Positions 33,070-48,798 of a stretch of 51,070 bases of DNA are shown piece after piece. Made by a program: the position numbers and the translations under genes. The stretch spans positions 1 to 51,070 of the forward strand of contig CAYNFU010000003.1 of NCBI GenBank assembly GCA_964396785.1, given 5' to 3'. The DNA is from an uncultured Gammaproteobacteria bacterium. Lineage in GTDB: Bacteria; Patescibacteriota; Microgenomatia; UBA8517. Position 1 is the stretch's first letter. Each line of letters begins with the position of its first letter. The notes beneath the pieces were generated by a model. That model ran no database searches. It saw nothing but the letters and a program-made list of their open reading frames with translations, and was not told the DNA's origin.

Positions 33070-33075
33070 GTCCTT

Positions 33076-34803
33076 TTAGGGTTGTGTATCTGTAGGCGTA
33101 GGGGTAATTGGCTCGGATTCCTTCTGGGGAATCGCAAGGACCTTGTGCTTAACTAAAATCCCTTTGACCAGTCCAAAGAAATCCCATACTTCTTTTGAAC
33201 CAAGAAGAATACTAATGACAAGGTAAATTACAACTCCAACTCCCGTAACCATGATCGTGAGAGCAAAAAGGTTTCCAGTGTAGCGAGTATCAAGAACAAA
33301 TCGCTCAAAGGGAATTTCGCGGGTTGCATCAATAGTCCCTAAAAAAGAAAGCCTCTTTACCCAAACACTTCTGTCAAAAATCTTAAGAAGAAAAAACATT
33401 GCCGACCCTGCTCCGAGGGAAGCAATCAGAGTTTTTAGAGGAGAAATAAGAAGACTTACGAAATTTTCTGCCTCGATTCTTTTTGTAATTAAATAAAAAA
33501 GGACAATCGCCTGAATTCCCGCCCCAATTGAGAAGGCGAGTGCTAGTCCCCAGACGGGAAGGGAAAAACCCCTAATAAAAATAAAGTCTAAGACTACAAC
33601 CACCAATATTGAGATAATGGATACTATTACCGGGGTCTTAGTATCGTGGAGTGCATAAAATCCCCTTGAAAGAAGAGACACCGCTGACTGGAAGGAAACT
33701 CCCAGGGCAAAGGCCGAAACGACGAGTCCCGTTTGTACCGTTGATTCCCAACTAAATATATCCGTTCCGAAGATAAGCCTTACCAAAGGGATTCTTAAAA
33801 CTATTAAAACAGTCGCCATGGGAGCGACAAAAAAGATTATCTGGTAAAGCGCCCCCAAAAGTGTTCTTCTAAAATCCGAAGGATTACCAGCCTGCCTTGC
33901 GAGGGTGGGAAGAGCCGCTTTGGCAACTGAAGATCCAAAAAGACCAACCGGAAGAAATTGGAGGGTGCTTGCGAATGTAAAATAGGTGTAGGAAGCGGTT
34001 GAAATGATTGAAGCTAAAGATAGCTCAACTAACTTTGAAGCTTGCAGGAAACTTACCTCGATAATCCTAGGCAGGGCGAGTTTTCCAATAGTTTTTACGT
34101 CTTTATTTAACTTAATTTTAGGAGAAAATCTAAAACCTAACTTCACTGCGAATGGAAGCTGAATAAGAAAATGTAAGAAGGACCCCAAAAGTACTCCAAG
34201 AGCCGGGGCAAGTAGTCCAAATTTACCGACCAGGAGAATGGTTCCAAAAATGATTCCTAGATTATAAAAAAGGGGGGCAAGGGCTGGAACCAAAAAACGC
34301 CTCAGAGATTCTAGTACCGAAGTTAAGACATAACTCACTACAAAAAAACCCTGGGCGGCAAAAAGAATTCTAGCAATTTTGACTATTTGGGCCCTCTGGG
34401 TAGGGTCATATCCTGGGGCAAAAAGGCTATATAATGGGTCGGCAAAAAGGGCCAAAATAAATCCCACAAGTAAGAATGCTATTGCTCCAATATTCGTTAC
34501 ACTCTCCGCAATATTCCATGCATTCTTCCTGCCCCGCTTTAAAGCTTTGGTGAAAACAGGAATAAAAGCGGATGAAAATGTTCCAAAAACTAAAACTTCA
34601 AAAACCAGGTCTGGAAGTCTAAAGGCTGCGAAGAAGAGCGATAGTTCCTCCGCTCCAAAAAAGTGAGCCAAAACCCTCTGGCGCACAAGTCCTAAGACTC
34701 TTGAAGCAACAACCATAAGCATGATAATAGTTGCGGCAGACAAGACCGAAGTTTGGGCCGAAAAGATAAGTTTTTTCCCTTTTGAAATTATTTTTCCAAC
34801 CAT
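33076..34803 (-). CDS. murJ: Lipid II flippase MurJ/MviN
   Basis: 575 aa, polytopic. SRVLGLVRQRVLAHFFGA....FFAAFRLPDL and FSSAFIPVF are typical MurJ N-terminal blocks. Confidence 0.9.
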   Translation of the reverse strand: MVGKIISKGKKLIFSAQTSVLSAATIIMLMVVASRVLGLVRQRVLAHFFGAEELSLFFAAFRLPDLVFEVLVFGTFSSAFIPVFTKALKRGRKNAWNIAESVTNIGAIAFLLVGFILALFADPLYSLFAPGYDPTQRAQIVKIARILFAAQGFFVVSYVLTSVLESLRRFLVPALAPLFYNLGIIFGTILLVGKFGLLAPALGVLLGSFLHFLIQLPFAVKLGFRFSPKIKLNKDVKTIGKLALPRIIEVSFLQASKLVELSLASIISTASYTYFTFASTLQFLPVGLFGSSVAKAALPTLARQAGNPSDFRRTLLGALYQIIFFVAPMATVLIVLRIPLVRLIFGTDIFSWESTVQTGLVVSAFALGVSFQSAVSLLSRGFYALHDTKTPVIVSIISILVVVVLDFIFIRGFSLPVWGLALAFSIGAGIQAIVLFYLITKRIEAENFVSLLISPLKTLIASLGAGSAMFFLLKIFDRSVWVKRLSFLGTIDATREIPFERFVLDTRYTGNLFALTIMVTGVGVVIYLVISILLGSKEVWDFFGLVKGILVKHKVLAIPQKESEPITPTPTDTQP

Positions 34804-34831
34804 TGTTTTTTAAATCTTCATAGATTATACT
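34803..34831 (+). promoter_or_regulatory. rpsT promoter, leaderless-type
   Basis: TTGTTT (34803-34808), a 17-nt spacer, TATACT (34826-34831), then 6 nt to the ATG at 34838. The opposite strand reads TATAAT at 34824-34829, facing murJ. Confidence 0.5.
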
Positions 34832-34837
34832 CTGCCC

Positions 34838-35128
34838 ATGCCCGTAACAAAAACGGCAAAAAGAGCCTTAAGGGCGGCCAAAAGAAAGGCTATAGTAAAT
34901 AGCTCTATTATAAAAAATTTGGAGATTGCTGTCCGTGTTGCCAAAAAATCAAAATCCGCCGAGAAGATTATTAAGGCTACCTCACTTCTTGATAGGGCTG
35001 CCAAAAAGAAAGCGATTCATAAAAATAAGGCCGCAAGAATTAAAAGCATTCTCTCAAAACTTACCCCCCGAAGGACAAATCACCCTAAGGCAAAGACGAA
35101 ACCAGCAAAAAAGACCTCAAAAAAGTAA
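34838..35128 (+). CDS. rpsT: 30S ribosomal protein S20
   Basis: 96 aa, very basic. AKRALRAAKRK.....IK........K and AAKKKAIHKNKAAR.KS.L are S20-like. Confidence 0.9.
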   Translation: MPVTKTAKRALRAAKRKAIVNSSIIKNLEIAVRVAKKSKSAEKIIKATSLLDRAAKKKAIHKNKAARIKSILSKLTPRRTNHPKAKTKPAKKTSKK

Positions 35129-35174: not shown

Positions 35175-35735
35175 ATGGCTGCCCGAAAAAAACAATCTTT
35201 AATTAATCTTTTACCTTCTGAAGAGTTTGCTGGTTCAACAACTGGAAGAGCTCTAGCTTGGGCCCTATCTACATTTCGCTACATTGTTATTGTTACAGAA
35301 CTAGTAGTAATTTTGGCATTTATATCGAGATTTTGGCTCGACGCCCAAAACCAAAGCCTGAGAGAAGAAATAGAACAGAAACAAGCACTTATCGCGAGTT
35401 CTTCCGACTTTGAAAAAGAGTTTAAAGAAGTTCAAAAACGTCTTACCGTTTATAAAACCCTTACAAAAGACTCCCTTTCTTTCTCAAAAATATTCACAGA
35501 TATTTCAACTAATATCCCAGATGACGTCTTATTATCAACCATCACATTTTTTGAAACTGGATTAACTATTGAAGGTTTTTCGTCAAACGAAAGGAGTATC
35601 GTCCAACTTGCAGTCAACCTTGAGAAAAACGCCGGATATCCAGATACTTCTGTCGCCTCGGTAAGTACAAACAAGGAAGATCCTTCTCTTCTTGAATTTA
35701 GTCTTAATGTTGCTCTTCCAAAGGAGGGTATTTAA
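35175..35735 (+). CDS. pilN: PilN-like type IV pilus alignment protein
   Basis: N-terminal SLINLLPSEE (the conserved INLLP PilM-binding peptide), a single TM helix, a coiled coil, and a small alpha/beta domain. 186 aa. Confidence 0.75.
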   Translation: MAARKKQSLINLLPSEEFAGSTTGRALAWALSTFRYIVIVTELVVILAFISRFWLDAQNQSLREEIEQKQALIASSSDFEKEFKEVQKRLTVYKTLTKDSLSFSKIFTDISTNIPDDVLLSTITFFETGLTIEGFSSNERSIVQLAVNLEKNAGYPDTSVASVSTNKEDPSLLEFSLNVALPKEGI

Positions 35736-36386
35736 ATGGCTCTAGGTTGGAGATCAAATTATTTTCGTTACAAAACTTACTTCCTCAACGTTGTAGGTCA
35801 TTACCAAAAAAGAGACGACTTAAAAATGTTTATGGAATTTATGCTCTCTTTGGCGACTATTGCGATATTCGGCATATTTGCAATAAGACCTACACTTTTG
35901 ACTATAGCCGAGCTTTTAAAAGAAATTGAAGGCAAAAAACAAACCGTTAGCATCATGAATGAAAAAATAGAAAATCTAAATCAGGCCCAAGCACTCTATG
36001 AAGAAGTAAGACCCGACATAGACCTTCTTAAAATAGCGATACCCAAAAAGGGCGAGCCCGAGAATCTCGTCCGACAATTTGAGGGAGTAGTAAGTCAAAA
36101 TCCTATAAGCATTCTTTCGCTATCTCTCGGACAAGTAAACATTTTGGGTGAGAGTGTCCCAATCGGGGTAATCACAACGAACGAGCTTCCCGAAGGGGCC
36201 GAGGGATTAGCGTTTACGATAAGCTCAAGCTCCGACTACCCCTTGCTTTCTTCTTTTGTAAAATCTTTGGAAGGGTTAAGACGACCTTATAAACTCGATG
36301 CCTTATATATTAATACTGCGCTTACACTTGAAGGAGGTAAGCAATTGATTCTTGTCATTAATGCACACTCGCCGTATCTTAAATAA
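35736..36386 (+). CDS. pilO: PilO-like type IV pilus alignment protein
   Basis: Short cytoplasmic N-terminus, TM helix (LSLATIAIFGIFAI), coiled coil (LKEIEGKKQTVSIMNEKIENLNQAQALYEE), and a C-terminal globular domain. Starts immediately after the pilN stop. Confidence 0.6.
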   Translation: MALGWRSNYFRYKTYFLNVVGHYQKRDDLKMFMEFMLSLATIAIFGIFAIRPTLLTIAELLKEIEGKKQTVSIMNEKIENLNQAQALYEEVRPDIDLLKIAIPKKGEPENLVRQFEGVVSQNPISILSLSLGQVNILGESVPIGVITTNELPEGAEGLAFTISSSSDYPLLSSFVKSLEGLRRPYKLDALYINTALTLEGGKQLILVINAHSPYLK

Positions 36387-36392
36387 ATAGAC

Positions 36393-36743
36393 ATGAAGAG
36401 AAAAATGCCGGCTTTGGTTTCAACTGCAATACTTACCGTAATCACATTATTCATGTGGATAGCTTTTAGCGTCTATCGGGTACTCACTGAACAGCCACCA
36501 ATAAGTGTTCCTCCCGAGATACTTGAACCAATCTCCCCAACTCTTGATAAAGAGGCTCTTGCAACTTTATCGCAAAGGACATATTTTGAGGAGACAGATG
36601 TGCCAGAAACATTTGTAAATCAAGGCCCGCAAGTCACCCAGCAACTCTCCGTCCCGGAGGCTACTCCCGCGTCGACGATTTCACCTAGCCCAGCACCAGA
36701 AGCCACCGGCTCGGCAGAATTAACAGCAACACCGACACCATGA
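36393..36743 (+). CDS. Small membrane-anchored protein with a Pro/Thr/Ser-rich C-terminus (116 aa)
   Basis: N-terminal TM helix ALVSTAILTVITLFMWIAFSVY and the tail ..ATPASTISPSPAPEATGSAELTATPTP. ATGA overlap with the next gene. Confidence 0.6.
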   Translation: MKRKMPALVSTAILTVITLFMWIAFSVYRVLTEQPPISVPPEILEPISPTLDKEALATLSQRTYFEETDVPETFVNQGPQVTQQLSVPEATPASTISPSPAPEATGSAELTATPTP

Positions 36744-38125
36744 AAGGAAAAATACCTACAATCATAGTTTTAGTAATGCTTGTAATAGGTGTGGTGGTCG
36801 GGGTTTTTTTGGTAAGAAACCGGCAAATTTTTAGACTTGGGGCAAGTGGAGAGATTACCCCTAAGGACGTACGCGTGACCAATATTACCGAATCGTCCTT
36901 AACTGTTTCGTGGACAACCGACAACGAGACTTCGGGAGCGGTATCATTTGGAAAAAATGAGATGCTTGGGCAAACTCTATTAAGCGAAGTCGAAGGGCAA
37001 GCGACACTTCATTCGGCGGTTCTTACAGGGTTAGATCCCGAAAGTAGCTATTTTATTAACATAAATTCAAATGAAACGGAATTTGATAATAACGGGGTCT
37101 CTTGGCAGGTCTCAACGGGGCCGGTCCTTGAACCCACAACCGAAACGATTGTTATTTCAGGGAAGATTTTAGATACAGATGGAAATCCCGCCGGAGGAGT
37201 CCTGGTTTATGTAGCAATTGGAGGAGGAACTCCACTTTCAACCCTCACCTCCTCTGATGGAAATTGGGTTATCCCCATTTCTACCTCAAGAACTCTCGAT
37301 TTAACGTCATTCGTTTCAATTGACGAAGAAAACTCCTTGGCAGAAATCTCCGTCCAGGGAGGTATAGGCGGTATTGCATCAGCCCAGATTTACCCGATAT
37401 CGGCAAAACCTGCGCCCCCAATAACCCTGGGCCAGGTACACGATTTCCGAAATCTTCCCCCGTCAACTCCAGGGGAAACTCCTGGGGCAACAATTGAAAT
37501 ACCCGAAGGGGAGGAGCAAGAATCTGGTTTTGCAGTACCCGAAACCGCAACCGCTTCGGGTCAAACTGTAACTCTTGAGAGTGTAGATAGTGGCGAAGTG
37601 GTAGCAACAACCCAACCAGAATTTTTCGGGGAAGGACCTAAGGGTACTGTAATTACGGTAACACTCGAATCAGACCCAGTTATCGATCAAGTTACGGTCG
37701 GGACTGATGGAGAATGGAACTGGACACCACCCGAGGGTCTTTTACCTGGAACCCACAAAATTACACTTTCTTGGAGAGACGCCCAAGGAATATTAAGAGC
37801 GCTAACTCGAACTTTTGTCGTTCAAGCAGCAGAGGAACCTGCATTCACCGCAACCCCTTCGGCTTCACCAACTCCGAGGGCAACCTCAACTCCTACGCCG
37901 ACCCCCAAACCGACGGGATCTCCAACGCCAACGCCCAAAGTCACGGCGACGCCGTCTGCTACTCTTACACCAACCAAAAAGCCTACCCCCACGGCAACTG
38001 GCTCATCCCTCCCAGATGCCGGTAGTCCGGGAGGAACCCTGGCTCTGGTTCTTTTTGGAGTCTCACTCCTAACATTTAGCACTCTCTCCCTAGCCCTATC
38101 TTTCAAAAAAGAGAAAAGCGCATGA
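36740..38125 (+). CDS. Surface protein: N-terminal anchor/signal, FN3-like domain, CarboxypepD_reg-like domain, bacterial Ig-like domain, PT-rich stalk and an LPDAG sorting signal
   Basis: VRVTNITESSLTVSWTTD (FN3-like), ISGKILDTDGNPAGGVLVYV, TQPEFFGEGPKGTVITVT...GTDGEWNWTP..LLPGTHKITL (Ig-like), a PT-rich run, then LPDAGS + hydrophobic stretch + KKEKSA. Confidence 0.8.
   Translation: MKGKIPTIIVLVMLVIGVVVGVFLVRNRQIFRLGASGEITPKDVRVTNITESSLTVSWTTDNETSGAVSFGKNEMLGQTLLSEVEGQATLHSAVLTGLDPESSYFININSNETEFDNNGVSWQVSTGPVLEPTTETIVISGKILDTDGNPAGGVLVYVAIGGGTPLSTLTSSDGNWVIPISTSRTLDLTSFVSIDEENSLAEISVQGGIGGIASAQIYPISAKPAPPITLGQVHDFRNLPPSTPGETPGATIEIPEGEEQESGFAVPETATASGQTVTLESVDSGEVVATTQPEFFGEGPKGTVITVTLESDPVIDQVTVGTDGEWNWTPPEGLLPGTHKITLSWRDAQGILRALTRTFVVQAAEEPAFTATPSASPTPRATSTPTPTPKPTGSPTPTPKVTATPSATLTPTKKPTPTATGSSLPDAGSPGGTLALVLFGVSLLTFSTLSLALSFKKEKSA
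38009..38125 (+). other. C-terminal cell-wall sorting signal (LPDAG motif + TM helix + basic tail)
   Basis: LPDAG is encoded at 38009-38023, followed by SPGGTLALVLFGVSLLTFSTLSLALSF and KKEKSA. This is the tripartite architecture of sortase substrates. Confidence 0.7.
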
Positions 38126-38523
38126 ACGAAAACCTTAAACGAAGATTGCCAATAATTGGCGTTGCGGCTGCAACTATAGTTCTCGCTGGAATTGCAGTTT
38201 TTACGGCTACTAGAATCTTTCAATCAAGGGAGGAGAACATCTCCCCAATCGCGCCCGAGGAGGAGCTCGCCCAAGCTCCAACTTTCACTCCAACTCCCTT
38301 ACCTACCTCTACCCCTACAATAAACCTCTCGGGAACTCCCACTCCAACGAGAACTTTGACGCCAACTGCTTCTACCTCGGGAACCCTCACTCCAACAAAA
38401 AAATTGACGGCCACTCCGACCTCAGCCGAAACCCTTCCGGATGCTGGAATTTCATATCCCACTCTAGTTGGAGTATCTGTAGGGCTCGTCCTTCTAATTG
38501 CGGGAGTGCTCTTGGCCATTTAA
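38122..38523 (+). CDS. Small PT-rich surface protein with an LPDAG sorting signal (133 aa)
   Basis: N-terminal TM helix, a PT-rich stalk, and TLTPTKKLTATPTSAETLPDAGISYPTLVGVSVGLVLLIAGVLLAI. ATGA overlap with the upstream gene. Confidence 0.7.
   Translation: MNENLKRRLPIIGVAAATIVLAGIAVFTATRIFQSREENISPIAPEEELAQAPTFTPTPLPTSTPTINLSGTPTPTRTLTPTASTSGTLTPTKKLTATPTSAETLPDAGISYPTLVGVSVGLVLLIAGVLLAI
38434..38523 (+). other. Second LPDAG sorting signal (motif + hydrophobic helix, no basic tail)
   Basis: LPDAG is encoded at 38434-38448. The preceding TLTPTKK.T.T.T block is paralogous to the one in the 461-aa protein. Confidence 0.6.
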
Positions 38524-38569
38524 TCCTCAAAAAGTTATTTTTCCGCTATACTTTGATAGTTTAAAGTTA

Positions 38570-40198
38570 ATGAGAAAGTATCTTTCATTTCCCGAAATTC
38601 TTATATTTCTACCCATCCTCGCTTTTTCGTTACTTCTGATGTTCAAAACATTCCAGATTTCTCCCGATGGAAATTTAAAAATTGCAACTAAGGCCTGGAG
38701 TGATTTCGCCGCAACAATTCCACTTATTCGTTCATTCTCTTTGGGTGATAATTTTCCACCCGAATATCCTCTTTTTGCTGGACCACCGATTCGATACCAT
38801 TTCCTCTTTTTTTTATTTGTGGGATTTTTGGAGAGAATCGGCTTGAGACTCGATTGGGCTCTTAATATCCCTAGCGCAATTTCATTCTTCCTTTTAACTC
38901 TGGTTATTTATTTTTTGGGGGTAAAAGTTTTCAAAAAAAAGAGCATTGGAATACTATCCGTTGTTCTTTTTCTTTTTAATGGGTCATTCTCTTTTTTGGA
39001 ATTTCTAAAGACTCACCCTATCTCTCCTAATTTTGTAAATGAAATTACCAAGGCTACCCAATTTGCATCTTTCGGTCCCTATGACGGCAAAATTGTCTCC
39101 GCCTTTTGGAGTCTTAATATTTTTACCAATCAGAGACACCTGGCTTTAGCCTATGCGGCTTTCTTACTTTTGGTTTTTTTCCTTTATAGATTCACAGATG
39201 TAAATAAAAAATTTTCCATAAAAGTTGTTGTGCTACTTTCGCTACTCATTGGTCTTTTTCCTTTTATCCACCTTGCTGTCTTTGGAATGATGCTTATCGC
39301 ACTTGGAGTATTTTTCTTACTTTACCCAAAGGCAAGATATCAAATATTTCTAATCGGCCTTTTTTCGTTAGCCATTGCTCTCCCCCAAATCCTTTATATG
39401 GGTAAGTCTCAAATAACTGTAAAGTTTTTCGATCCCGGCTATTTGGTACAAAATCTAAACCTGGTCAATTTTATTAAATATTGGGTTTTGAATTTAGGTT
39501 TAGGAGTTTTCCTTGCCCCAATAGGATTTGCGCTTGTACCAAAGAAGATTAAGAAAATTTTCTTCCCATTCCTCACCCTTTTTGTCGTTGGAAATCTTTT
39601 TCGCTTCTCGCCGGAGGTCGCAGCAAATCACAAATTCTTCAACCTATTTTTAATCGGAGCAAATTTTTTTACAGCTTTTGCACTAGTGAGTATTTGGGAT
39701 AAAAAAATTGTTGGAAAAGTATTGGTAGCGAGTTCCATCTTCTTACTAACTTTCTCCGGAATTATCGATATATTCCCAATACTAAATGACGGCTACATTG
39801 AAATTTCTGACTATCGAAAAAATCAAACCTCCCAATTTATTATCAGAAATTCCACAAAGGATAGTCTGATATTAAATTCATCCTATCTTTACGACCCAGC
39901 CTCGCTTGCCGGAAGAAAAATATATTTGGGCTGGCCTTATTTTTCTTGGTCTGCCGGATACGATACAGACACGCGTTTTCAAATGCTAAGGTCCATCCTT
40001 GAAGCAAAAGACAAGAAAACTGCGTGCGCACTTCTGACTCAAGAGGGCATCGATTATATTGAAACTTCCGAACCAACATCTCTAGAAGGAGTGCAAGCAA
40101 ATTATTCTTTATTTGAGAAAAATTTCGAAAAAATATTTATCGATCCAAGACTGAAGCTCAATATATATGATGTAAAAGTATCTTGTGTAAAAAATTAA
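38570..40198 (+). CDS. Polytopic membrane protein, GT-C-fold glycosyltransferase-like (PMT/ArnT-type)
   Basis: About 12 predicted TM helices with a C-terminal soluble domain. The first-loop region is ..AWSDFAATIPLIRSFSLGDNFPPEYPLFAG... The start is set at ATG 38570 (MRKYLSF) to avoid overlapping the upstream gene. The family call is inferred from architecture. Confidence 0.5.
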   Translation: MRKYLSFPEILIFLPILAFSLLLMFKTFQISPDGNLKIATKAWSDFAATIPLIRSFSLGDNFPPEYPLFAGPPIRYHFLFFLFVGFLERIGLRLDWALNIPSAISFFLLTLVIYFLGVKVFKKKSIGILSVVLFLFNGSFSFLEFLKTHPISPNFVNEITKATQFASFGPYDGKIVSAFWSLNIFTNQRHLALAYAAFLLLVFFLYRFTDVNKKFSIKVVVLLSLLIGLFPFIHLAVFGMMLIALGVFFLLYPKARYQIFLIGLFSLAIALPQILYMGKSQITVKFFDPGYLVQNLNLVNFIKYWVLNLGLGVFLAPIGFALVPKKIKKIFFPFLTLFVVGNLFRFSPEVAANHKFFNLFLIGANFFTAFALVSIWDKKIVGKVLVASSIFLLTFSGIIDIFPILNDGYIEISDYRKNQTSQFIIRNSTKDSLILNSSYLYDPASLAGRKIYLGWPYFSWSAGYDTDTRFQMLRSILEAKDKKTACALLTQEGIDYIETSEPTSLEGVQANYSLFEKNFEKIFIDPRLKLNIYDVKVSCVKN

Positions 40199-40755
40199 GG
40201 AAAAATATTCTTTTTACTTATCCTAAATAGATCGGTAACGAAATTATAGACGCTCATTACAAATTTCCCGCGACTGGTGATTCTATAGCCCGACCCACTG
40301 TTAAAAATATTCCCTGAGACGGTCTGTTCGTCAAATCGTTTTCGAACACCTTCATGTTCATAAATGTATTTATCGATTAAAACTTTTGCCATTTCTTCTT
40401 CTGAGATTTCTCTATCCGAATTTTCGTTCATATATCCCAACAGAAAAGTGGAAACTGAACGCTCGGCAGTAACCGGAAGGTGGGTGAAAAAAACTAAGTT
40501 TAGACAAAAGATTAATACCGAGGACAGAAGTGCGTCAGAAAGAGAAAAAGTTTTGCCGCGAAGAGCAAAATTTATTCCCACCCCAACAAAAAAAGTAAAT
40601 AATGTGACAATGCTAAGAAAAATAATCCCTCGATAAAAAAGCACCGTAGTACTTTTTGCTAGTTCTGTCTGAAAAAGCAGAATAAAAAGGGCCGTACCTA
40701 ATACGAATAACTCGAGGTGTAAAAGAAATAACCAAAGACTTTTTTTGACATTCAT
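40195..40755 (-). CDS. Membrane protein of unknown function (186 aa; 4 TM helices plus a soluble C-terminus)
   Basis: Hydrophobic N-terminal two thirds. ATGA-type overlap with the upstream GT-C gene. Its stop overlaps the convergent gene's stop (TTAA). Confidence 0.55.
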   Translation of the reverse strand: MNVKKSLWLFLLHLELFVLGTALFILLFQTELAKSTTVLFYRGIIFLSIVTLFTFFVGVGINFALRGKTFSLSDALLSSVLIFCLNLVFFTHLPVTAERSVSTFLLGYMNENSDREISEEEMAKVLIDKYIYEHEGVRKRFDEQTVSGNIFNSGSGYRITSRGKFVMSVYNFVTDLFRISKKNIFP

Positions 40756-42764
40756 AACTTCTCTTTCGAGGACAGCATCTTTATATCTCGTTGGAAGGAT
40801 TTTATATTTTTGCTTGCTATCGTCAAGACGTATAAAGAAAAGTCTCTTCCATCTACACTCTTTGTAATTATTTCCTCTGAGCCATATTTTTTATATTTGC
40901 TAAATATCTCAATGACCGCTTCGCTCTTATCGGACACCTCCCATATCATCTTCAAATCTTTGTCCGAACTAACGTAATTAAGAATCGCTTTAAAATTATC
41001 CTCAAAAATTTCTTTTGGTGTTTTTAGAAGCTGTATACCCTGATTACAAAAAGAGAGAATCTTCTTATCGTCAAAGTCTTGTAAGAATAAGTGGGCAATA
41101 GCATAAGAACTATATGGACAAAATAGTGTGTCATATTGAGGCCTCGCCGAATCCATTTCCCTTCTAAATTCATCCTGTTTTATCTCATCCTTAATTGTTG
41201 TAATCCCGAGAACTCCCTTGGAGCTCTCTACTTCCTTTTTACGGATAGTACCAGCGACTATATCCTGTACTAAGCGTGAGATAGCGACGTCTTTATGAGG
41301 AAGTAGATATAAATAGTTCGGATTTTTTGAAATATTCCAGAGATAACTAATAGAAGGTATTAACCCCAAACCCGCCGCAGCCAAACCTATTACTAGATAA
41401 AGCTTTGAGGCAATTCTTTTTGAACTAAAAATATGATTTAGGCTAAAAGCCATGGCAATGACCCAGATGGGAACAGAAAGAAGCACCCTAAAATCGTAAG
41501 AGCCGGAAACCAATGCGCCAAGTGTGGGAATGATCGACAAGAATACTATCTCAAATCTTTTTTTTAACAGGGCAATGAATAAACCTGGAATAAGTAGTAA
41601 ATAATAGCCAAGCGGAATGATTGGAAAATCAGGTAAAAATTGTCTTTGAAATGTGTGTTTTGCGAAAAAAAGCTCAATTAGTCCATCGACGTAAGGCCTT
41701 ATCGCCCCAACTCCCCCGTTTAAAAAAAGTGAAAAAAACTCTCGTAAAAGCCCCTGCTCTCTAAGAACATATGCTTGGTAATTAAAGATTATATAAATGA
41801 GAAGCGGCGTCGCCGAAATAATAAAACCGGTAATCCATACAAGAGTAAAAGCGAGACCTTCTTTCAAACTTTCCTTTCGCTTTCTAAAAATTAAATAGGC
41901 CAAAAAAGATAAAGCTAGGCCCAGAATATACTGTTTCCCCATAATCGCACTACTTAAGCAAAGTGCGGCAAATAGCGCCGAAGTGGCTACTCTAAAAAGA
42001 GATTTATTGGAGAGTGCCGTATAAAGAAAATACAAAGAAACAACCATTAGGGGAGCGGCAATTGCATACCTATGGCCCATAAATATATGCATATAGTGAA
42101 GCGGGAAGAAATTGATGATTAAGGCAGACAAAAGCGTTACCCTCGTATCGTTGAAAATCCTATGAATGATAAATGTCGTAAAAAATACCGTTACAAAACC
42201 CAAAATAAGAAGTGAGAAATTAAAGACGGGAAGATTGTATCCGAATACTTTAAAAAGGCCTGAGATGTAATAATGAAAAACTACTTCGCGGCTTATTAAT
42301 CCCACCGAGTCAAAGAAGGCCGGTTGGAAGGGAGCCCCACTAAATACCTGATTTTTTGCAAAATAGATATCCCATGCAGCATCGTCAAAAAGTCCATTTT
42401 GGTTCCATGGGGCGGAAGATATATTCCACAGATGGGTTGTGAAATAAAGGAGAGTGACAAAGAGTCCAATAAATAGATCCCGCCTCTTTATTTTCCCCAA
42501 TATTTTCTTGATTGAGAAATTACGAGGTGCGAAAGAGTAAGAAAAAATTACAACAGCAATTACCCAGCTAATCCAGGACAGATTATTTCCAGGGAAAAGG
42601 ATCATGTAGTGTAAGGAGGAAGAGACTACTGAAAGGAGTAAAAAAACAATTGAGATCGGCAGTGCTTTTTTGTGGGTAATTTTAACCTTTAAATAGTTCG
42701 CTAGCTGCCTGAAATACATGATCATAATCTCAATTGGCTGCTTTAAGTCCCCATTGTATAGCAC
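40752..42764 (-). CDS. Polytopic membrane protein, GT-C-fold glycosyltransferase-like (GT39/GT83-type)
   Basis: More than 10 TM helices, an acidic first periplasmic loop NGLFDDAAWDIYFA (a DD/DE-type GT-C motif), and a C-terminal soluble domain. The start is uncertain: GTG at 42764, or ATG at 42725 or 42719. Confidence 0.55.
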   Translation of the reverse strand: MLYNGDLKQPIEIMIMYFRQLANYLKVKITHKKALPISIVFLLLSVVSSSLHYMILFPGNNLSWISWVIAVVIFSYSFAPRNFSIKKILGKIKRRDLFIGLFVTLLYFTTHLWNISSAPWNQNGLFDDAAWDIYFAKNQVFSGAPFQPAFFDSVGLISREVVFHYYISGLFKVFGYNLPVFNFSLLILGFVTVFFTTFIIHRIFNDTRVTLLSALIINFFPLHYMHIFMGHRYAIAAPLMVVSLYFLYTALSNKSLFRVATSALFAALCLSSAIMGKQYILGLALSFLAYLIFRKRKESLKEGLAFTLVWITGFIISATPLLIYIIFNYQAYVLREQGLLREFFSLFLNGGVGAIRPYVDGLIELFFAKHTFQRQFLPDFPIIPLGYYLLLIPGLFIALLKKRFEIVFLSIIPTLGALVSGSYDFRVLLSVPIWVIAMAFSLNHIFSSKRIASKLYLVIGLAAAGLGLIPSISYLWNISKNPNYLYLLPHKDVAISRLVQDIVAGTIRKKEVESSKGVLGITTIKDEIKQDEFRREMDSARPQYDTLFCPYSSYAIAHLFLQDFDDKKILSFCNQGIQLLKTPKEIFEDNFKAILNYVSSDKDLKMIWEVSDKSEAVIEIFSKYKKYGSEEIITKSVDGRDFSLYVLTIASKNIKSFQRDIKMLSSKEKL

Positions 42765-42814
42765 TTGGCAATTTGCAACTATAATGAAAATAGCGAATAA
42801 TATTTCGCTTTGAT

Positions 42815-44845
42815 ATGCTAGCAGACATTCCTAGTATTTTTTACTGGTGGGTCATATTATTTTCTTTAGGACTATTTAGTTTTCCATTAACTTGGAGTCT
42901 CTTACGCAAATTTTTTGATTCTGGATACGGATTATCAAAAATCTTTGGAATAATAGTTCCTTCCTATTTAGTATTTCTCTTTTCAACTCTTCATATTCTC
43001 CCTTTGAACCAGCTTTTTATTTTTGGGATTTTCGCTATCTACATCATTCTAAACTTTATTATTTATGCGAAAAATAATACCGAAATCAAAGAGATATTTA
43101 GAAAAAAACTAAAGATTTTTCTTTTAGAAGAATTTCTTTTCATCGCAGGTCTTTTTGCTTGGAGTTATGTTCGAGCCCACCAACCTGATATTAGAGGGCT
43201 TGAAAAATTTATGGACTTTGGGTTTATTAACTCGATACTAAGAAGTGAATTCCTGCCACCCGCCGATATGTGGGCCGCAGGAAAAACTATTAACTACTAT
43301 TGGTTCGGGCATTTAATGACCGCGGTACTCACCAAACTCTCAGGAATTCCAGGGGCAATTACTTATAACCTCATGTTGGGAACTATTCTCGGGCTTACAC
43401 TTTCTTCCGCCTTTAGTATTGCCTCGTCCCTTTTGGCTAGTTCTTTCGGTAGTCAAAGGGTAAGGATAGTTATCGTCGGAGGAGTTTTATCTGCCCTTCT
43501 TTTGGGCCTAGGTGGAAATTTCCATGCTCCATATTATGTCCTAAAAAACGGGCACGAAAAATATTGGTATCCGGATGCAACCCGCTTTATCGGCTATAAC
43601 CCAGACACAAACGACAAAACAATTCATGAGTTCCCCAGTTACTCATTTATCGTATCTGACCTTCACGGGCACCTTTTGGATTTACCAGTGGTTCTAACAT
43701 TTCTTGCCCTTTTGACAAGTTTTATAGTGTTCTCAAAAGAAAAGGGAGAGAAATTATTAATCACATTGGGGTTGGGGATGCTTCTAGGAATAATGTTTAT
43801 GACCAATACTTGGGACTTTGGAATTTACCTTCTTGTAGCTGGGGTCACTATCGCAATTCATAACCTCGTCAAAAAGAAACTTTCTTGGGATTTTCTTTTC
43901 GAAACTTCAAAGAGGCTTCTTACCCTTTTAGTGGCCGGGTTATTTATCGCCATGCCATTTATCATTAATTTCTCCTCAATTGCCCAAGGAGTTGCTTTCG
44001 TAAATGCAAGAACCCCCATCTGGCAGCTTACAGTTCTCTGGGGATTCCCGATAGTTCTCACTATCTTTTTTATTTTTAAACTTGTAATTACAAGAAAAAT
44101 TGATTTATCTAAAATTTTTGTATTTTCACTACTTATCGCCGCCTGGATTTTGATATTCTTGCCTGAGTTTATTTTTGTAAAAGACATCTACATCGGATCT
44201 CACCATCGGGCAAATACAATGTTCAAGCTTACCTATCAAGGTTTTGTAATTTTCTACCTCGCCTCGGGTTATATTATCGTCTCAATCCTTTTGTCTATAA
44301 AGAAGTTCCTCTTAAAATTTTTAGCCGTTTTGGCTTCATCGATTGTTATCGCATCTATTCTTATTTATCCCTACTTCGGAATTAAATCCTTCTATGGGGA
44401 ACTTAAAAACTATAAAGGTCTAGATGGTGAGGCTTGGCTTGAAAGAGATTACCCAGGTCTATATTCAGCCATTTTATTCTTTAGGGAAAATACTTTTGGC
44501 CAACCGATAATTTTGGAGGCCGCGGGAGATAGCTATACGGACTTTAATGTTATATCGGCTTATTCCGGGCTTCCGACAGTTTCGGGTTGGTTCGTCCACG
44601 AATGGCTCTGGCGAGGTACTCCAGAATTCCCCCAGGCAAGAGCCAATGATGTAAGTCAAATTTACTTAACACAAAACCTCGAGGAGGCAAAAAATCTCCT
44701 ATCAAAATATAATGTTTCATATGTGGTTGTCGGAACTTTTGAAAGACAAAAATATCCTACGCTCAACGAGGAAAAATTTGAAAAAATTGGGAGGATGGTA
44801 TTTTCAAATTCGGGAGTAAATATCTACCAACTCAGTTACAATTAA
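42815..44845 (+). CDS. DUF2298 / Chlor_Arch_YYY-type polytopic membrane protein (putative GT-C glycosyltransferase)
   Basis: 676 aa, many TM helices. GKTINYYWFGHLM matches the YYY-motif region of this family. Has a C-terminal soluble domain. Confidence 0.6.
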   Translation: MLADIPSIFYWWVILFSLGLFSFPLTWSLLRKFFDSGYGLSKIFGIIVPSYLVFLFSTLHILPLNQLFIFGIFAIYIILNFIIYAKNNTEIKEIFRKKLKIFLLEEFLFIAGLFAWSYVRAHQPDIRGLEKFMDFGFINSILRSEFLPPADMWAAGKTINYYWFGHLMTAVLTKLSGIPGAITYNLMLGTILGLTLSSAFSIASSLLASSFGSQRVRIVIVGGVLSALLLGLGGNFHAPYYVLKNGHEKYWYPDATRFIGYNPDTNDKTIHEFPSYSFIVSDLHGHLLDLPVVLTFLALLTSFIVFSKEKGEKLLITLGLGMLLGIMFMTNTWDFGIYLLVAGVTIAIHNLVKKKLSWDFLFETSKRLLTLLVAGLFIAMPFIINFSSIAQGVAFVNARTPIWQLTVLWGFPIVLTIFFIFKLVITRKIDLSKIFVFSLLIAAWILIFLPEFIFVKDIYIGSHHRANTMFKLTYQGFVIFYLASGYIIVSILLSIKKFLLKFLAVLASSIVIASILIYPYFGIKSFYGELKNYKGLDGEAWLERDYPGLYSAILFFRENTFGQPIILEAAGDSYTDFNVISAYSGLPTVSGWFVHEWLWRGTPEFPQARANDVSQIYLTQNLEEAKNLLSKYNVSYVVVGTFERQKYPTLNEEKFEKIGRMVFSNSGVNIYQLSYN

Positions 44846-45938
44846 TCCCGGTAACTATGCAGTCAAACCAATTATGAATGTCCTCCCAGTCTCCGCTTTT
44901 GGGAATAAAGACATAAAGATTGTCATACCTTGGCGTTTCTGGAGGGTTTACCAAAAGCTCTTCCGGTAAAACGAAGGATTTCAAATTATCTTTTGATGAA
45001 AGTAGCCTTCTTGCTAAAATAGCAGAAGCTGAATCGGTAAGGTCAGTTTCTGTCGAAGTTCTTATTATTTTCCACAATTTTAAAAGTGTCTTTGGAGAAA
45101 GTAGGATTTTTCCTGAAAGAACTTTTTGGGAAGTTGCTAAAATTATCTTCTGTTGACGACGCGACCTGGCAAAATCTGTTCCTTCGTCTCCTTCCGCATT
45201 TCTCGAACGGGCAAATTTTAGGGAAGTCTCTCCATCCATAATCTGAAGTCCTTTTTCAAAATGAATAGTTTCATATCGACAAGCAAATTCAGGGTCTCCT
45301 CCACACTCGTCATTTTCTTTACCGACGATTGGGTATTTGTCGTCGCTAAAAGCTCTTTCAACTTCGACTTCGACTCCGCCCAAAGTATCAATAACTTCTT
45401 TAAAGGAAGAAAAATCGACAACAACTGCATATTGGATAGTCTCTCCGCTAATTTGTTCTATGGTAGACTTGGCCAAAATTATTCCACCCCCGCTTTGCTT
45501 TTGATTCCCCCAATAATAGACGCTATTTAGTTTGGTTCTAAGCTCAGGGATCCAAATATCCCTGGGAAGAGAAACTAGTTTTACCTCTGGGTCTTCCTTG
45601 GAAATAGATGCGAAGATTATGGTGTCGGTTAAGTCTGGAGCTTCGTGTCCTTCGCCACCTTTTCCTAAAATCAAAACGTTTGTTCGTCCATCCAAAATTT
45701 CAATCTTGTCCCTAGGTGTAAAAATAAAATCTCCACTAAGCTTCACAAATGAGCCAAAGGGAGTTTTCCCCAAGACAAACCCTACAAATAAAACTGCTAG
45801 ATAAAGACCCAATATGGAAAGCCCCAATATTCCACCTCTTACCGCCCAAGTGTATTTCAAAATTCTCCTTTTGATTCTTGAAATAACCACATTGGTTTTG
45901 TTTGGGGGCTTGGGTTGGGGAACGACCGGGTCTTCCAT
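44832..45938 (-). CDS. LytR-CpsA-Psr (LCP) family cell-wall glycopolymer ligase
   Basis: Cytoplasmic N-terminus, a TM helix, then NVLILGKGGEGHEAPDLTDTIIFASI, LVSLPRDIWIP, and FARSRNAEGDEGTDFARSRRQQ blocks typical of LCP. Confidence 0.88.
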   Translation of the reverse strand: MEDPVVPQPKPPNKTNVVISRIKRRILKYTWAVRGGILGLSILGLYLAVLFVGFVLGKTPFGSFVKLSGDFIFTPRDKIEILDGRTNVLILGKGGEGHEAPDLTDTIIFASISKEDPEVKLVSLPRDIWIPELRTKLNSVYYWGNQKQSGGGIILAKSTIEQISGETIQYAVVVDFSSFKEVIDTLGGVEVEVERAFSDDKYPIVGKENDECGGDPEFACRYETIHFEKGLQIMDGETSLKFARSRNAEGDEGTDFARSRRQQKIILATSQKVLSGKILLSPKTLLKLWKIIRTSTETDLTDSASAILARRLLSSKDNLKSFVLPEELLVNPPETPRYDNLYVFIPKSGDWEDIHNWFDCIVTGINCN

Positions 45939-45974: not shown

Positions 45975-47828
45975 ATGCCAAAAGGAAACAAGCTACTTAC
46001 CGGACTAAATAAAGAACAAGAAAAAGCCGTAACTTACTGCCACGGGCCTCTTTTGGTTTTAGCTGGAGCAGGAAGCGGAAAGACCAAAGTTTTGACCCAC
46101 AGGGTAGCCTATTTTCTCTATAAAAAATTTGTTCTACCAGAGCAAGTTCTACTTCTTACTTTCACAAATAAAGCGGCGGGGGAGATGAAAGAAAGGGTAG
46201 CGGCATTAACCGGGACGACCCCACCTTTTTCAGGAACCTTTCATTCCTTCTGTGCCAAGGTGTTAAGAATCGACGGAAAACATATTGGAATTGCCCCCAA
46301 TTTTCTAATTTATGACGGGGAAGACCAAAAGGATGCAATAAAGCAAATACTTAAGGAATTTAATATGTCGCTTGACTCATTCAGTCCCGCGGGAATCTTG
46401 GGGGAGATATCAGACGCCAAAAATCAAATGACATCAGTTAGGGGTTATAGTGAATTTGCCAAGGGTGATTGGCAAGAGGCAGTCTTTAAAGTTTGGGTCA
46501 AGTATGACGCTCTCCTAAAAGAAATGGGGGCGCTTGACTTTGACGACCTTCTAATAAAATGCGTTGAGCTTTTCGGTAAGGTCCCCGAAATTCTTGATAA
46601 ATGGCAGAAAAAACTAACACACGTCTTTGTGGATGAATGGCAGGACACAAACAAAATCCAGTATGCCCTTACAAAATTACTTGTTGGAAAAAGAAAAAAT
46701 ATAACTGCCGTTGGGGACGCTTCCCAATCAATATATTCCTGGCGTGGGGCTGACTTTCGAAATATCAATTATCTCATCCGTGACTTCCCCGATATAAAAA
46801 TCATAAACCTTGAGCAAAATTATCGCTCGACTCAAAACATTTTAGCCGCCGCAAACTCGGTAATCTCCAAAAATACCAGTCACCCAATCTTGAAGCTTTG
46901 GACGCAAAAAGGCGCTGGTGAAAAAATCAGGCTCTATTCTGCTAGAAACGGTTTGGATGAGGCAAGTTTTGTGGTAAATGAAATAATAGAATTAACAGGA
47001 AGCGGTTCTAACTTTTCCGACGTAGCAGTTTTATATAGAACCAATGCCCAGTCAAGAGTTTTGGAGGAGGCTCTTCTTCACTCTGGAATTCCTTACGTCT
47101 TAGTTGGAGGAGTCAGGTTCTACGGAAGGCGTGAAATTAAAGACGTTTTGTCATACCTCAGGCTTTTGGTTAACCCCAAAGACTCAGTATCTAAAAGAAG
47201 AATTGAGAAGTTGGGGGTAAGGCGTATTGAGAAATTCAACAGCCTAAAGGAGGATCTAAAAGATCTCGAAGGGACTACCACCCTCGATTTATTAGATGCG
47301 GTTTTAGAAAAAACGGGGTATCTCGAGCTTTACCAAAAAGAATCAGAAGAAAATTTAGCGCGTCTTGAAAACATCAAAGAACTTCGATCTGTCGCAACCG
47401 AATTTCCCAATATCAATGAATTTCTTGAAAACGTTGCTCTTGTCGAAGCAGAAGAATCAGTTAGTAAAAGAGAACTCGGTAAAAGCTCCAAAAAAGATGC
47501 CGTTACTTTAATGACATTACACGGAGCAAAAGGTCTTGAGTTTCCAGTTGTATTTATTGTTGGAATGGAAGAAGGGCTTTTCCCTCATTCCCGTTCTCTT
47601 TGGGACACGGGTCAGTTGGAAGAAGAAAGACGCCTCGCCTATGTTGGGATAACCAGGGCTAAAAATCTTTTGTATCTCTCCTATGCCACCCGCCGACTTT
47701 ATTTCGGAGAAAAACTCTCAAACCCTCCCTCAAGGTTTATAATTGACATTCCAGAGAGTCTCTTACGGGGGGTTGGGGGAGATAGCTTAGTAAAAAGTTT
47801 CGGAGAATTTGACGATATTAATTTTTAA
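45975..47828 (+). CDS. pcrA: ATP-dependent DNA helicase, UvrD/PcrA family
   Basis: LNKEQEKAV...GPLLVLAGAGSGKT, FVDEWQDTN, VGDASQSIYSWRGA, YRS, TLHGAKGLEF and YVGITRA motifs. The start is set at MPKGNK, matching the canonical N-terminus. Confidence 0.92.
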   Translation: MPKGNKLLTGLNKEQEKAVTYCHGPLLVLAGAGSGKTKVLTHRVAYFLYKKFVLPEQVLLLTFTNKAAGEMKERVAALTGTTPPFSGTFHSFCAKVLRIDGKHIGIAPNFLIYDGEDQKDAIKQILKEFNMSLDSFSPAGILGEISDAKNQMTSVRGYSEFAKGDWQEAVFKVWVKYDALLKEMGALDFDDLLIKCVELFGKVPEILDKWQKKLTHVFVDEWQDTNKIQYALTKLLVGKRKNITAVGDASQSIYSWRGADFRNINYLIRDFPDIKIINLEQNYRSTQNILAAANSVISKNTSHPILKLWTQKGAGEKIRLYSARNGLDEASFVVNEIIELTGSGSNFSDVAVLYRTNAQSRVLEEALLHSGIPYVLVGGVRFYGRREIKDVLSYLRLLVNPKDSVSKRRIEKLGVRRIEKFNSLKEDLKDLEGTTTLDLLDAVLEKTGYLELYQKESEENLARLENIKELRSVATEFPNINEFLENVALVEAEESVSKRELGKSSKKDAVTLMTLHGAKGLEFPVVFIVGMEEGLFPHSRSLWDTGQLEEERRLAYVGITRAKNLLYLSYATRRLYFGEKLSNPPSRFIIDIPESLLRGVGGDSLVKSFGEFDDINF

Positions 47829-47832
47829 AGAT

Positions 47833-48798
47833 ATGGATAAAAACTCTTTCAACAAAGCATCTTGCCACCCATTACAAACTTGGGAATGGGGAGAGTTTAG
47901 AAAAGCATGGGGAAACAAAGTTATAAGATTACCTTTCGGACAACTCACCCTCCACAGCCTTCCGCTTCTTCCTTATAAGATAGCCGCATTTGAAAAGGGG
48001 CCAGCTCCTACAAAAAATATGCTTAACGAATTAAAAAAACTCGCAAAAGAGGAGAATTTGATATTTATTAAACTCGAGCCCTCCGTTAGCGAAAACCTAG
48101 AAAAATTAAAGAATCTTCTTAGTGAGTACGGTGCTACAAAAGGAAAGACTCTTTTTACACCGACGACTTTTTGGATAGACCTGACAAAGTCCGAAGAGGA
48201 ACTTTTAAAAAGTTTTCATTCAAAAACCCGCTACAACATCCGACTCGCTCAGAAGAATGGAGTCGAAGTAGTTGAGGATAACTCTGAAGCCGCCTTTAAA
48301 AAATATCTCGAATTAACCAAGGAAACGGTTAAGCGTCAGGGATTTTACGCCCACAACAGGCGTTACCATGAGCTTATGTGGGAACACCTCCACCGAAAAC
48401 CTGTTTCCGAGGGAAAAGAACCGATAGCAAGACTTTTGACCGCTCGTTATAAAAGCCAAATAATTACCGCCTGGATAGTATTTGTCTGGAAAGACTTTCT
48501 TTATTACCCATATGGTGCTTCAACCGAAAAGCATAAAAATATCATGGCCAATAATTTAATGATGTGGGAGGCAATACGTTTTGGGAAATCCTTGGGACTT
48601 AAGACTTTTGACCTTTGGGGACGCGAAGAAGGAAAAGGATTTACAAAGTTTAAGGAAGGCTACGGTCCCCAAGTTGTAGAGTTTTTAGGAACTTGGGATT
48701 TGCCTACCAGTCCTTTTTATTGGCCGTATAGGATTCTGGAATCTCTGCGCTGGATATTACTTCGGGCCAAAAGTAAATTTTCTAAGCCTTCATTTTGA
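47833..48798 (+). CDS. FemAB-family peptidoglycan peptide-bridge aminoacyltransferase
   Basis: PLQTWEWGEFR, KTRYNIRLAQKNGVEV, LLTARY...ITAWIVFVW, YYPYGAS, and FDLWG blocks are typical of FemX/FemAB (tRNA-dependent transferases). The start is set at ATG 47833, after the pcrA stop. Confidence 0.8.
   Translation: MDKNSFNKASCHPLQTWEWGEFRKAWGNKVIRLPFGQLTLHSLPLLPYKIAAFEKGPAPTKNMLNELKKLAKEENLIFIKLEPSVSENLEKLKNLLSEYGATKGKTLFTPTTFWIDLTKSEEELLKSFHSKTRYNIRLAQKNGVEVVEDNSEAAFKKYLELTKETVKRQGFYAHNRRYHELMWEHLHRKPVSEGKEPIARLLTARYKSQIITAWIVFVWKDFLYYPYGASTEKHKNIMANNLMMWEAIRFGKSLGLKTFDLWGREEGKGFTKFKEGYGPQVVEFLGTWDLPTSPFYWPYRILESLRWILLRAKSKFSKPSF

Follow-up and report, generated by a model that had tools for sequence, protein, structure and literature searches.

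Genes for the type IV pilus alignment proteins PilN and PilO adjoin genes for predicted wall-anchored stalk proteins and GT-C enzymes in a conserved Woesebacteria locus

We have analysed a stretch of 51,070 nt of DNA (the whole of which is referred to here as the window), in which a gene cluster at 35175-45938 encodes the type IV pilus alignment proteins PilN and PilO, three Pro/Thr-rich membrane-anchored proteins (p116, p461 and p133), three large GT-C membrane proteins, a small membrane protein (p186) and a LytR-CpsA-Psr (LCP) transferase. A second locus, at 11227-14134, encodes a sortase and a 742-residue membrane protein, p742. The window comes from an uncultivated ultrasmall bacterium of Candidatus Woesebacteria (Microgenomates, candidate phyla radiation (CPR)/Patescibacteria), this being the name that close homologues of p742 and PilN carry in the source records. 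A first-pass annotation had joined all of these components into one surface-display platform, and each of them lies where that annotation had placed it. For comparison, relatives of PilN were drawn from 80 species-level (GTDB) genomes (PilN identity 36-76%), together with six neighbourhoods of PilN homologues carrying family annotations, and homologue searches of individual genes were run over 86 related loci, with an E-value of 1e-4 for PMT_2. Counts for the PilN locus are limited to those loci with enough sequence, such that the denominators are 76, 74, 62 (at least 5.5 kb downstream) and 54 (10 kb). The features are collected in Table 1.

Both PilN and PilO prove to be bona fide alignment proteins of the type IV pilus, as the first-pass annotation had proposed. 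PilN, which lies above its Pfam cut-off, comprises a cytoplasmic N-terminus bearing an INLLP peptide, a single transmembrane (TM) helix (residues 37-55) and an extracytoplasmic PilN domain; the peptide, for which the first-pass annotation had named PilM as the natural ligand, is invariant (I10-N11-L12-L13-P14) across 33 homologues of 43-76% identity. The window's PilO scores 16 bits against the Pfam PilO family (PF04350), under the cut-off of 22; despite this, we assign it to PilO because 23 of 27 orthologues match that family (best E-value 6.7e-12), and because the orthologue profile matches Myxococcus xanthus PilO (PDB code: 3jc8; E-value 2.6e-9). Only this profile succeeded against the PDB, as sequence searches with the single PilN or PilO protein returned nothing useful.

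The invariance of INLLP suggests that a PilM-type partner of PilN is probably encoded elsewhere in the genome, and the six family-annotated neighbourhoods contain no other pil gene upstream of or around pilN. CPR genomes generally encode PilM, PilN, PilO, PilB, PilC and PilT, and a sortase is near-ubiquitous in Microgenomates (PMC6744442). In one complete Microgenomates genome, a single pilus locus is described with PilM, PilB, PilT, PilC, PilD and pilins, PilN and PilO not being listed (PMC7143001); the listing of PilM without these two favours a conventional PilM that is encoded apart from pilN and pilO. We also considered whether a 397-residue cytoplasmic protein (8394-9587, minus strand) might be an unrecognised PilM; its sequence matched nothing in Pfam, NCBIfam or the PDB, so nothing supports the idea. 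Its gene sits between yceG and rpoB, an arrangement that is also seen in a related locus (L089).

Table 1. Coordinates and properties of the features discussed in the text.
Feature	Coordinates	Strand	Length (aa)	Family match and other properties
Sortase	11227..11931	-	234	Pfam PF04203, 83.5 bits
p742	11906..14134	-	742	Pfam Baseplate_J (PF04865), 28.6 bits (cut-off 21.1)
MurJ lipid II flippase	33076..34803	-		Pfam MurJ, 251 bits; divergent from the rpsT-pilN block
PilN	35175..35735	+	186	Pfam PF05137, 39.2 bits (cut-off 22.8)
PilO	35736..36386	+	216	Starts at the nucleotide that follows the pilN stop codon
p116	36393..36743	+		Small N-terminally anchored protein; TM residues 7-25; Pro 13.8%, Thr 13.8%
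p461	36740..38125	+		Sec-type N-terminal anchor; fn3-like, CarboxypepD_reg-like and Big_13 domains; Pro/Thr-rich stalk; LPDAG, TM helix and KKEK
p133	38122..38523	+		Short predicted wall-anchored stalk protein; N-terminal anchor; Pro/Thr-rich stalk; LPDAG and TM helix
GTC542	38570..40198	+		Multi-TM; no Pfam or NCBIfam match; 9 TM helices (open reading frame scanned from upstream TTG start)
p186	40195..40755	-		Small 3-TM protein; same orientation as the PMT_2 gene; no family match
PMT_2-family GT-C glycosyltransferase	40752..42764	-	670	Pfam PMT_2, 35.3 bits (cut-off 26.1)
DUF2298 / Chlor_Arch_YYY protein	42815..44845	+	676	Pfam DUF2298, 335 bits; TIGR03662, 510 bits
LCP (LytR-CpsA-Psr) transferase	44832..45938	-	368	Pfam PF03816, 108 bits; TIGR00350, 97.8 bits; TM residues 37-55
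Two FemAB-family genes	47809..49664	+		Pfam FemAB, 91.5 and 34.8 bits; peptidoglycan cross-bridge formation

Immediately downstream of pilO lie the genes for the three membrane proteins with Pro/Thr/Ser-rich stalks that had been noticed at first pass, two of them with LPDAG sorting signals, and all three are as described there. The first, p116, has a Pro-rich extracytoplasmic tail, no sorting signal and no family match; its orthologues share the TM helix and a VPxEILxPLxPxLD motif, and its gene stands in the operon slot that pilP holds in pilMNOPQ operons. The gene for p461, whose Big_13 and fn3 domains score 34 and 27 bits, respectively, in Pfam, overlaps that for p116 by the sequence ATGA; orthologues of p461 retain both a tail of the form xPxxG-LTPT-TM-WK and an N-terminus of the form KIPTILGI..AGVFL..Q.F..GA. 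Those of p133 carry LPxAG or LPxSG signals, and their N-terminal LAGVAIFTA.RLYQLR segment is some 90% conserved. Sorting signals of this kind occur nowhere else in the 51 kb; those of p461 and p133 each consist of LPDAG and an ensuing hydrophobic helix. Of the hallmarks of a sortase substrate, namely, an export signal, an LPxTG-like motif, a hydrophobic helix and a basic tail, p461 has every one and p133 all save the basic tail. Across the relatives, the motif keeps the form [LIV]PxxG but drifts in its letters (LPDAG, LPQSG, VPVTG, IPESG and others), with the tripartite tail being retained. In the two substrates p461 and p133, many positions of the N-terminal anchor (36740-36860 and 38122-38240, respectively) show about 90% conservation between species, which is far more than expected for ordinary signal peptides; the anchors may serve in targeting or interaction. 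A reading of the p116, p461 and p133 N-termini for a prepilin signal (class III, of the G|FxxxE type) found none.

The Pro/Thr-rich coding regions yield long antisense open reading frames, which in the window fall at 37822-38223 and 38220-38519 (both minus strand). Public gene calls place the p133 orthologue on the wrong strand in two of the related loci (L001, 12972-13391, minus strand, 139 residues; L002, 13189-13497, minus strand, 102 residues), and the plus-strand LPDAG protein is consequently missing from those annotations.

The three GT-C proteins that had been proposed at first pass are likewise borne out, each by a different route: a PMT_2 match, a structural model of the DUF2298 protein, and homology of GTC542 to the DUF2298 family. 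Direct comparison of DUF2298 with the PMT family using hhalign found no relationship, and, therefore, the assignment of the former to GT-C needed the model. This was generated with AlphaFold2 (predicted local distance difference test score (pLDDT) 88.8; predicted TM-score (pTM) 0.92), and its top 11 Foldseek matches are all GT-C proteins, among them AglB (E-value 2.4e-7), AftA (TM-scores 0.52/0.57), DPY19, a chain of the human Sec61-TRAP-OST-A translocon and ArnT; the C-terminal globular domain matches that of AglB (PDB code: 3vu0). As modelled, the DUF2298 protein has an oligosaccharyltransferase-like architecture, in which a globular C-terminal domain is appended to the GT-C fold, and the family may transfer glycans to proteins. 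Following an early TM helix, Glu130 and Asp134 are invariant within the sequence GLEKFMDFGF. An invariant Trp-rich motif, GWFVHEWLWRG (residues 591-601), is reminiscent of the oligosaccharyltransferase WWDxG motif. GTC542 aligns with the DUF2298 family over 541 columns (hhalign 99.6%; E-value 2.6e-24) and, judged by this profile comparison, it is a divergent paralogue of that family; searches of Pfam and the PDB with its own orthologue profile gave weak DUF6798 and DUF2298 matches and nothing more.

The type of GT-C enzyme differs by sub-lineage: GTC542 with the DUF2298 protein is characteristic of the window's own group, whereas in 40 of 54 loci the place beside the stalk protein is taken by a convergent gene for an 815-residue protein, a protein O-mannosyltransferase homologue with PMT and PMT_4TMC domains in all 16 of those scanned. 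Among these 16, there are N-terminal matches to other GT-C families (GT87 in four and PIG-U in three), and this mixture suggests that the 815-residue protein is a tandem GT-C fusion. In the representative at L005 (15505-17949, minus strand) and 43 similar loci, the PMT/PMT_4TMC domains occupy the C-terminal half, and some N-terminal halves match GT87, PIG-U or Mannosyl_trans4; the protein is often found beside a Mannosyl_trans2-like protein. By comparison, the genes for the window's PMT_2 enzyme and p186, the latter being the small membrane protein of the first-pass annotation (three TM helices by our scan), have no homologue among the 86 related loci, and their arrangement recurs in a single matching contig (L090). 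This minus-strand cassette (40195-42764) is the part of the window with the lowest G+C content (0.36-0.37). The slot looks like a variable glycosylation position; relatives hold other genes there, such as those for a 403-residue STT3/PMT_2 protein (L001) or a methyltransferase (L003). Beyond the GT-C genes, the LCP-family gene is present as it had been annotated.

The grouping of these genes is more than chance; it recurs in the 80 species-level genomes and in the six neighbourhoods of PilN homologues with the invariant order MurJ | S20-PilN-PilO-p116-(p461)-p133. PilO follows PilN in all 76 loci and p116 comes next in 75 of 76, whereas directly upstream there is always rpsT (S20), with MurJ beyond it (74/74). 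Within 5.5 kb, there is at least one sorting-signal protein in each of 62 loci, and there are at least two in 37 of them; moreover, at least one large multi-TM protein is encoded within 10 kb in 54 of 54 loci, this being usually a PMT-family enzyme or DUF2298 paralogues. The median gaps over some 80 species are 1 nt (PilN-PilO), -4 nt (PilO-p116) and -4 nt (p116-p461), implying translational coupling from pilN to p461. The genes further downstream vary freely, yet pilN-pilO-p116 and a sorting-signal protein are never split. Additionally, there are 123 open reading frames with an N-terminal TM helix and a sorting signal in 1.36 Mb of sequence around PilN versus none in 1.12 Mb around the sortase. 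The linkage of pilN and pilO with sorting-signal proteins is thus real, and it is apparently undescribed: our literature search turned up no publication that connects PilN/PilO to sortase substrates, in keeping with the remark made at first pass that no described system was known to combine type IV pilus alignment proteins with sortase-dependent display.

We tentatively favour an account that we judge to have nearly an even chance of being correct, namely, that this is a conserved Woesebacteria cell-envelope locus, in which a pilN-pilO-p116-p461-p133 operon couples PilN and PilO to wall-anchored glycoproteins, with PilM being encoded elsewhere. The operon possibly runs on into the first GT-C gene; a scan for promoters and terminators over 34.7-46.1 kb gave the same result as shuffled sequence and did not delimit the transcripts. 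The GT-C enzymes, whether PMT-type or DUF2298, would O-glycosylate the Pro/Thr-rich stalks on the outside of the membrane, and the LCP enzyme may add to this, as LcpA does in Actinomyces. The sortase would cut the LPxxG signals and join the proteins to peptidoglycan, and co-translation with PilN and PilO would place these predicted glycoproteins at the pilus platform. There, given that the cell has no outer membrane, they could either serve the pilus machine as a wall-proximal accessory or be adhesins exported beside the platform; the former option is raised by p116 and p461 holding the operon positions of PilP and PilQ. The INLLP peptide of PilN would bind a conventional PilM, rather than p742. 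The best support for the glycosylation step is that a GT-C gene stays beside the stalk proteins while its type changes.

Several observations weigh against this account. Neither the window nor the 10-kb extensions on both sides of it encode a pilin, PilB, PilC, PilD or PilM, and no complete type IV pilus locus lies beside pilN and pilO over that span. An LCP gene lies within 10 kb of PilN in only 32 of 54 loci, and p461 is truncated or has no recognisable signal in some species. Glycosylation, sortase cleavage and contact of PilN or PilO with p116 or p461 are all predictions from sequence. Furthermore, every relative that was recovered belongs to the Woesebacteria/Microgenomates lineage, such that the linkage of PilN/PilO with the substrates has effectively one evolutionary origin, and the flanking housekeeping genes (IF2-NusA-DnaJ-DnaK-GrpE-HrcA-MurJ-S20 and UvrD) are equally syntenic in the same genomes. 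With flanks that are as collinear, and a single lineage, synteny alone is weak evidence for function; the argument for a functional link rests, therefore, on the gene overlaps and the distribution of substrates.

It is this frozen gene order that underlies the best-surviving alternative, which we regard as unlikely while taking it seriously: two unrelated modules would simply lie side by side, with pilN and pilO serving a conventional pilus, and the LPxxG, GT-C and LCP genes constituting a separate module for surface glycoproteins or wall glycopolymers in a general envelope neighbourhood. Collinearity spans the entire 25-kb neighbourhood in every one of the 86 loci and takes in the housekeeping genes, the envelope genes for MurJ and FemAB flank the region, and the published pilus locus with PilM, for which PilN and PilO are not listed (PMC7143001), would fit equally with pilN and pilO merely being encoded apart. 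However, mere proximity does not readily account for start and stop codons that overlap or abut from pilN through to p461 in most of the approximately 80 species, as is typical of co-translated partners, nor for the failure of pilN-pilO-p116 and a sorting-signal protein to separate when the genes downstream of them vary, nor for the conserved N-terminal anchors of the substrates.

The sortase and p742 form a separate gene pair, which is as conserved as the PilN block. The catalytic residues of the sortase, as read by eye from the translation, lie in the motifs GHS (His), LITC (Cys) and RLVVRA (Arg); its class is not assignable, its scores falling far short of the cut-offs for each of the NCBIfam models tried (classes C, E, D and F). 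As had been claimed at first pass, it is coupled to the 742-residue protein: the two reading frames overlap by 26 nt, and the genes are adjacent in 73 of the 73 metagenome loci that were used for this count. The sortase also follows p742 in four more distant homologues (31-37% identity), one of which has no alaS upstream and a NUDIX gene inserted downstream. In nearly all loci, the pair lies between alaS and ruvX-yceG (9638-15975, minus strand, in the window). The order alaS-ruvX-mltG/yceG is widely conserved, and hence the pair looks inserted into it. YceG is a peptidoglycan glycan-strand terminase, and its proximity may hint at a connection of the pair with wall synthesis.

In an AlphaFold2 model of p742 (pLDDT 82), the cytoplasmic domain (approximately residues 15-258) is joined by a disordered linker to a TM helix (residues 370-388), beyond which lies a β-rich ectodomain of about 350 residues. 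The ectodomain matches Baseplate_J in 31 of 49 family members, and the family profile matches diffocin CD1371 (E-value 6.4e-5); with Foldseek, the C-terminal domain finds phage and diffocin baseplates at E-values of around 1e-6, albeit with low TM-scores. Clustered at 50% identity, the matches of a HMMER search with the N-terminal domain number 1,313; among the best 150, the majority are 670-810 residues long, and shorter ones may be fragments.

The first-pass annotation had read the cytoplasmic domain as a degenerate PilM. On that basis, a single integrated machine could be envisaged, in which p742 takes the place of PilM in binding INLLP, the p742/PilN/PilO platform positions the sortase, and the sortase and LCP enzyme display stalks that are glycosylated by the GT-C proteins; this we consider improbable. 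The modelled domain does indeed have an actin-like fold, and its Foldseek matches include PilM (E-value 2.3e-7; TM-score 0.45 on PilM length) and FtsA (7e-7), but PPX/GppA scores at least as well (3e-8), and the best fit by TM-score (0.52) is the 257-residue protein BT_3980. According to the model, this is a minimal actin-like (ASKHA) domain, and its resemblance to PilM is no greater than that to PPX/GppA. Neither p742 nor 49 diverse members of its family give a PilM_2, FtsA or T2SSL signal in Pfam, and a profile of the 49 has no PilM or FtsA match in the PDB at E<1, the nearest approach being a 45-residue FtsA match with the single p742 sequence (E-value 0.096). PilM is a soluble cytoplasmic protein, unlike the bitopic p742, and binds PilN in a groove between subdomains 1A and 1C. 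The order of secondary structure elements in the p742 model corresponds to two bare RNase-H-like lobes of approximately 245 residues with no insertion, and subdomain 1C, and with it the PilN-binding groove, thus appears to be absent; additionally, the Asp positions of the phosphate motifs appear changed when judged by eye (Glu25; LGVGKE).

Gene positions likewise divide on this point. That p742 keeps its sortase even where the upstream context differs, that the only sortase substrates in the window lie beside PilN and PilO, and that no canonical PilM occurs in the roughly 70 kb examined would all suit an integrated machine, but the two loci are never found within 10 kb of one another: a sortase or p742 lies within that distance of PilN in none of 54 loci, and a PilN, PilO or substrate homologue within that distance of p742 in none of 80. 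The proposed platform thus stands insofar as it links PilN/PilO, sorting-signal proteins, and large multi-TM genes of the GT-C type by gene neighbourhood, but not in its use of p742 as a PilM-like partner. Given an actin-like fold with no PilM signal, and constant adjacency to the sortase, we describe p742 as a constant sortase partner and not as a demonstrable PilM. A related proposal, to which we give about as little credence, is that PilN and PilO are the core of a dedicated wall-display or wall-spanning apparatus that is independent of any pilus, with INLLP being read by the actin-like domain of p742 or by FtsA, the p742-sortase pair thereby being coupled to a platform of PilN/PilO and p116, and LPxxG glycoproteins being handed to the sortase at a defined site; were it true, type IV pilus platform and sortase machinery would be combined in a hybrid with no described counterpart. 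Finally, a pilus or fibre polymerised by sortase in the Gram-positive manner, with p461 as tip or adhesin, p133 as base, and PilN and PilO as bystanders, is very improbable: the sortase does score best against the class C (pilus) model, yet at 51.7 versus a cut-off of 160, and one relative has a SpaA and SdrD_B protein with an LPQAG signal in the variable slot, but there is no sortase in or near the substrate locus (0/54 loci), p461 has no clear YPKN-type pilin motif on a non-systematic reading, and p133, being little more than a disordered stalk, offers no fold that could be polymerised.

To attach to their hosts, CPR/Patescibacteria rely on type IV pili and surface proteins. The operon that we favour as a PilN/PilO-coupled envelope locus bears on how a pilus is organised in a CPR wall that has no outer membrane, and p116, p461 and p133 are concrete candidates for a wall-proximal part of the pilus or for adhesins exported beside it. 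The individual parts all come from known families; what is new is their fixed operon arrangement, along with the p742-sortase pair. Two large families are also flagged by this work, namely, DUF2298 and the actin-like/baseplate-J protein that always accompanies the CPR sortase; our literature search found nothing on the function of the former, or on a baseplate-J-like sortase partner. If the linkage proves to be inherited gene order only, the value of these observations is limited to better annotation.

Housekeeping genes elsewhere in the window include rpoB/rpoC, those for S12/S7, alaS, ftsK, those for RNase J, PNPase and IF2, nusA and dnaJ/dnaK/grpE/hrcA. A gene for a 284-residue protein with no Pfam match (25456-26310, minus strand) is kept beside that for IF2 in many related loci. 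Gene orientation flips from minus to plus at MurJ|rpsT (approximately 33000-35000), and the cumulative GC skew drops until about 46 kb and then climbs; together, these could mark a replication-related strand switch, although the window has no dnaA. Among the public records of metagenome-assembled genomes with a locus of this Woesebacteria type, many bear the title 'uncultured Gammaproteobacteria', 'Alphaproteobacteria' or 'Bathyarchaeia' (L008, L010, L012, L033, L083 and others), and these titles look like mislabelled taxonomy.

Among known systems, the Pam pili, a CPR-specific surface structure that assembles by donor-strand exchange and is reported in Microgenomatia too, involve membrane-tethered proteins with Ig-like or FnIII-like domains (bioRxiv 10.64898/2026.03.03.709456). 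We considered whether the present locus was of this kind and ruled it out, as the Pam operon has the chaperone-like PamC/PamD and ATP synthase neighbours, but no PilN/PilO, sortase signals or GT-C enzyme. With GspL of type II secretion, p742 shares a bitopic topology and an actin-like cytoplasmic domain; it differs in having no T2SSL or PilM signal in Pfam, in an ectodomain that is baseplate-J-like rather than ferredoxin-like, and in having a sortase for a neighbour and not a secretion ATPase.

The closest parallel to the head of the operon is with the type IVa PilM-PilN-PilO(-PilP-PilQ) systems of Pseudomonas aeruginosa and M. xanthus (PDB codes: 5eou and 3jc8). PilN has the same INLLP peptide, one TM helix and a PilN domain, PilO comes next, and the succession of N, O, a small Pro-rich anchored protein and a large β-rich envelope protein mirrors N-O-P-Q. 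However, rpsT and not pilM is upstream of pilN, there is no secretin, there are no pilins or ATPases nearby, and for the genes that occupy the P and Q positions no homology to PilP or PilQ is detectable; sorting signals, moreover, are present here. In the single-membrane bacterium Clostridium perfringens, PilM, PilN and PilO mutants export less of the Sec-dependent, non-pilin surface or matrix proteins that pass through the wall (PMC11580942, preprint), which is a partial precedent for the favoured account. LPXTG proteins and a sortase gene nearby are a further likeness, but there the pil and cargo genes occupy separate loci, whereas in the window translational coupling joins pilN-pilO with the cargo-like genes.

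For the stalk proteins, a precedent is found in Actinomyces oris, in which the LCP protein LcpA glycosylates the LPXTG protein GspA before the latter is anchored by the housekeeping sortase SrtA (PMC6381275). Both systems have LPxxG substrates rich in Ser, Thr and Pro, an LCP-family enzyme and a single sortase. They differ in that GT-C genes lie here between the substrates and the LCP gene, the sortase is 21 kb away beside p742, and PilN and PilO head the operon; also, GspA is known to be glycosylated, whereas glycosylation of the stalk proteins is a prediction. Protein O-mannosyltransferases (PMT; GT39), which take mannose from polyprenyl-phosphate-mannose and pass it to Ser/Thr, act on secreted proteins rich in Ser, Thr and Pro in Actinobacteria and fungi (PDB code: 6p25). 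The window has a PMT_2 enzyme, and 40 of 54 relatives have the 815-residue protein beside the stalk protein, although no homologue of the window's own PMT_2 was found in the related loci, and the constant partners in its sub-lineage are the DUF2298-type GT-C proteins. That a GT-C gene remains adjacent to the stalk protein genes across this change of type suggests that the PMT enzymes may act on their stalk-protein neighbours.

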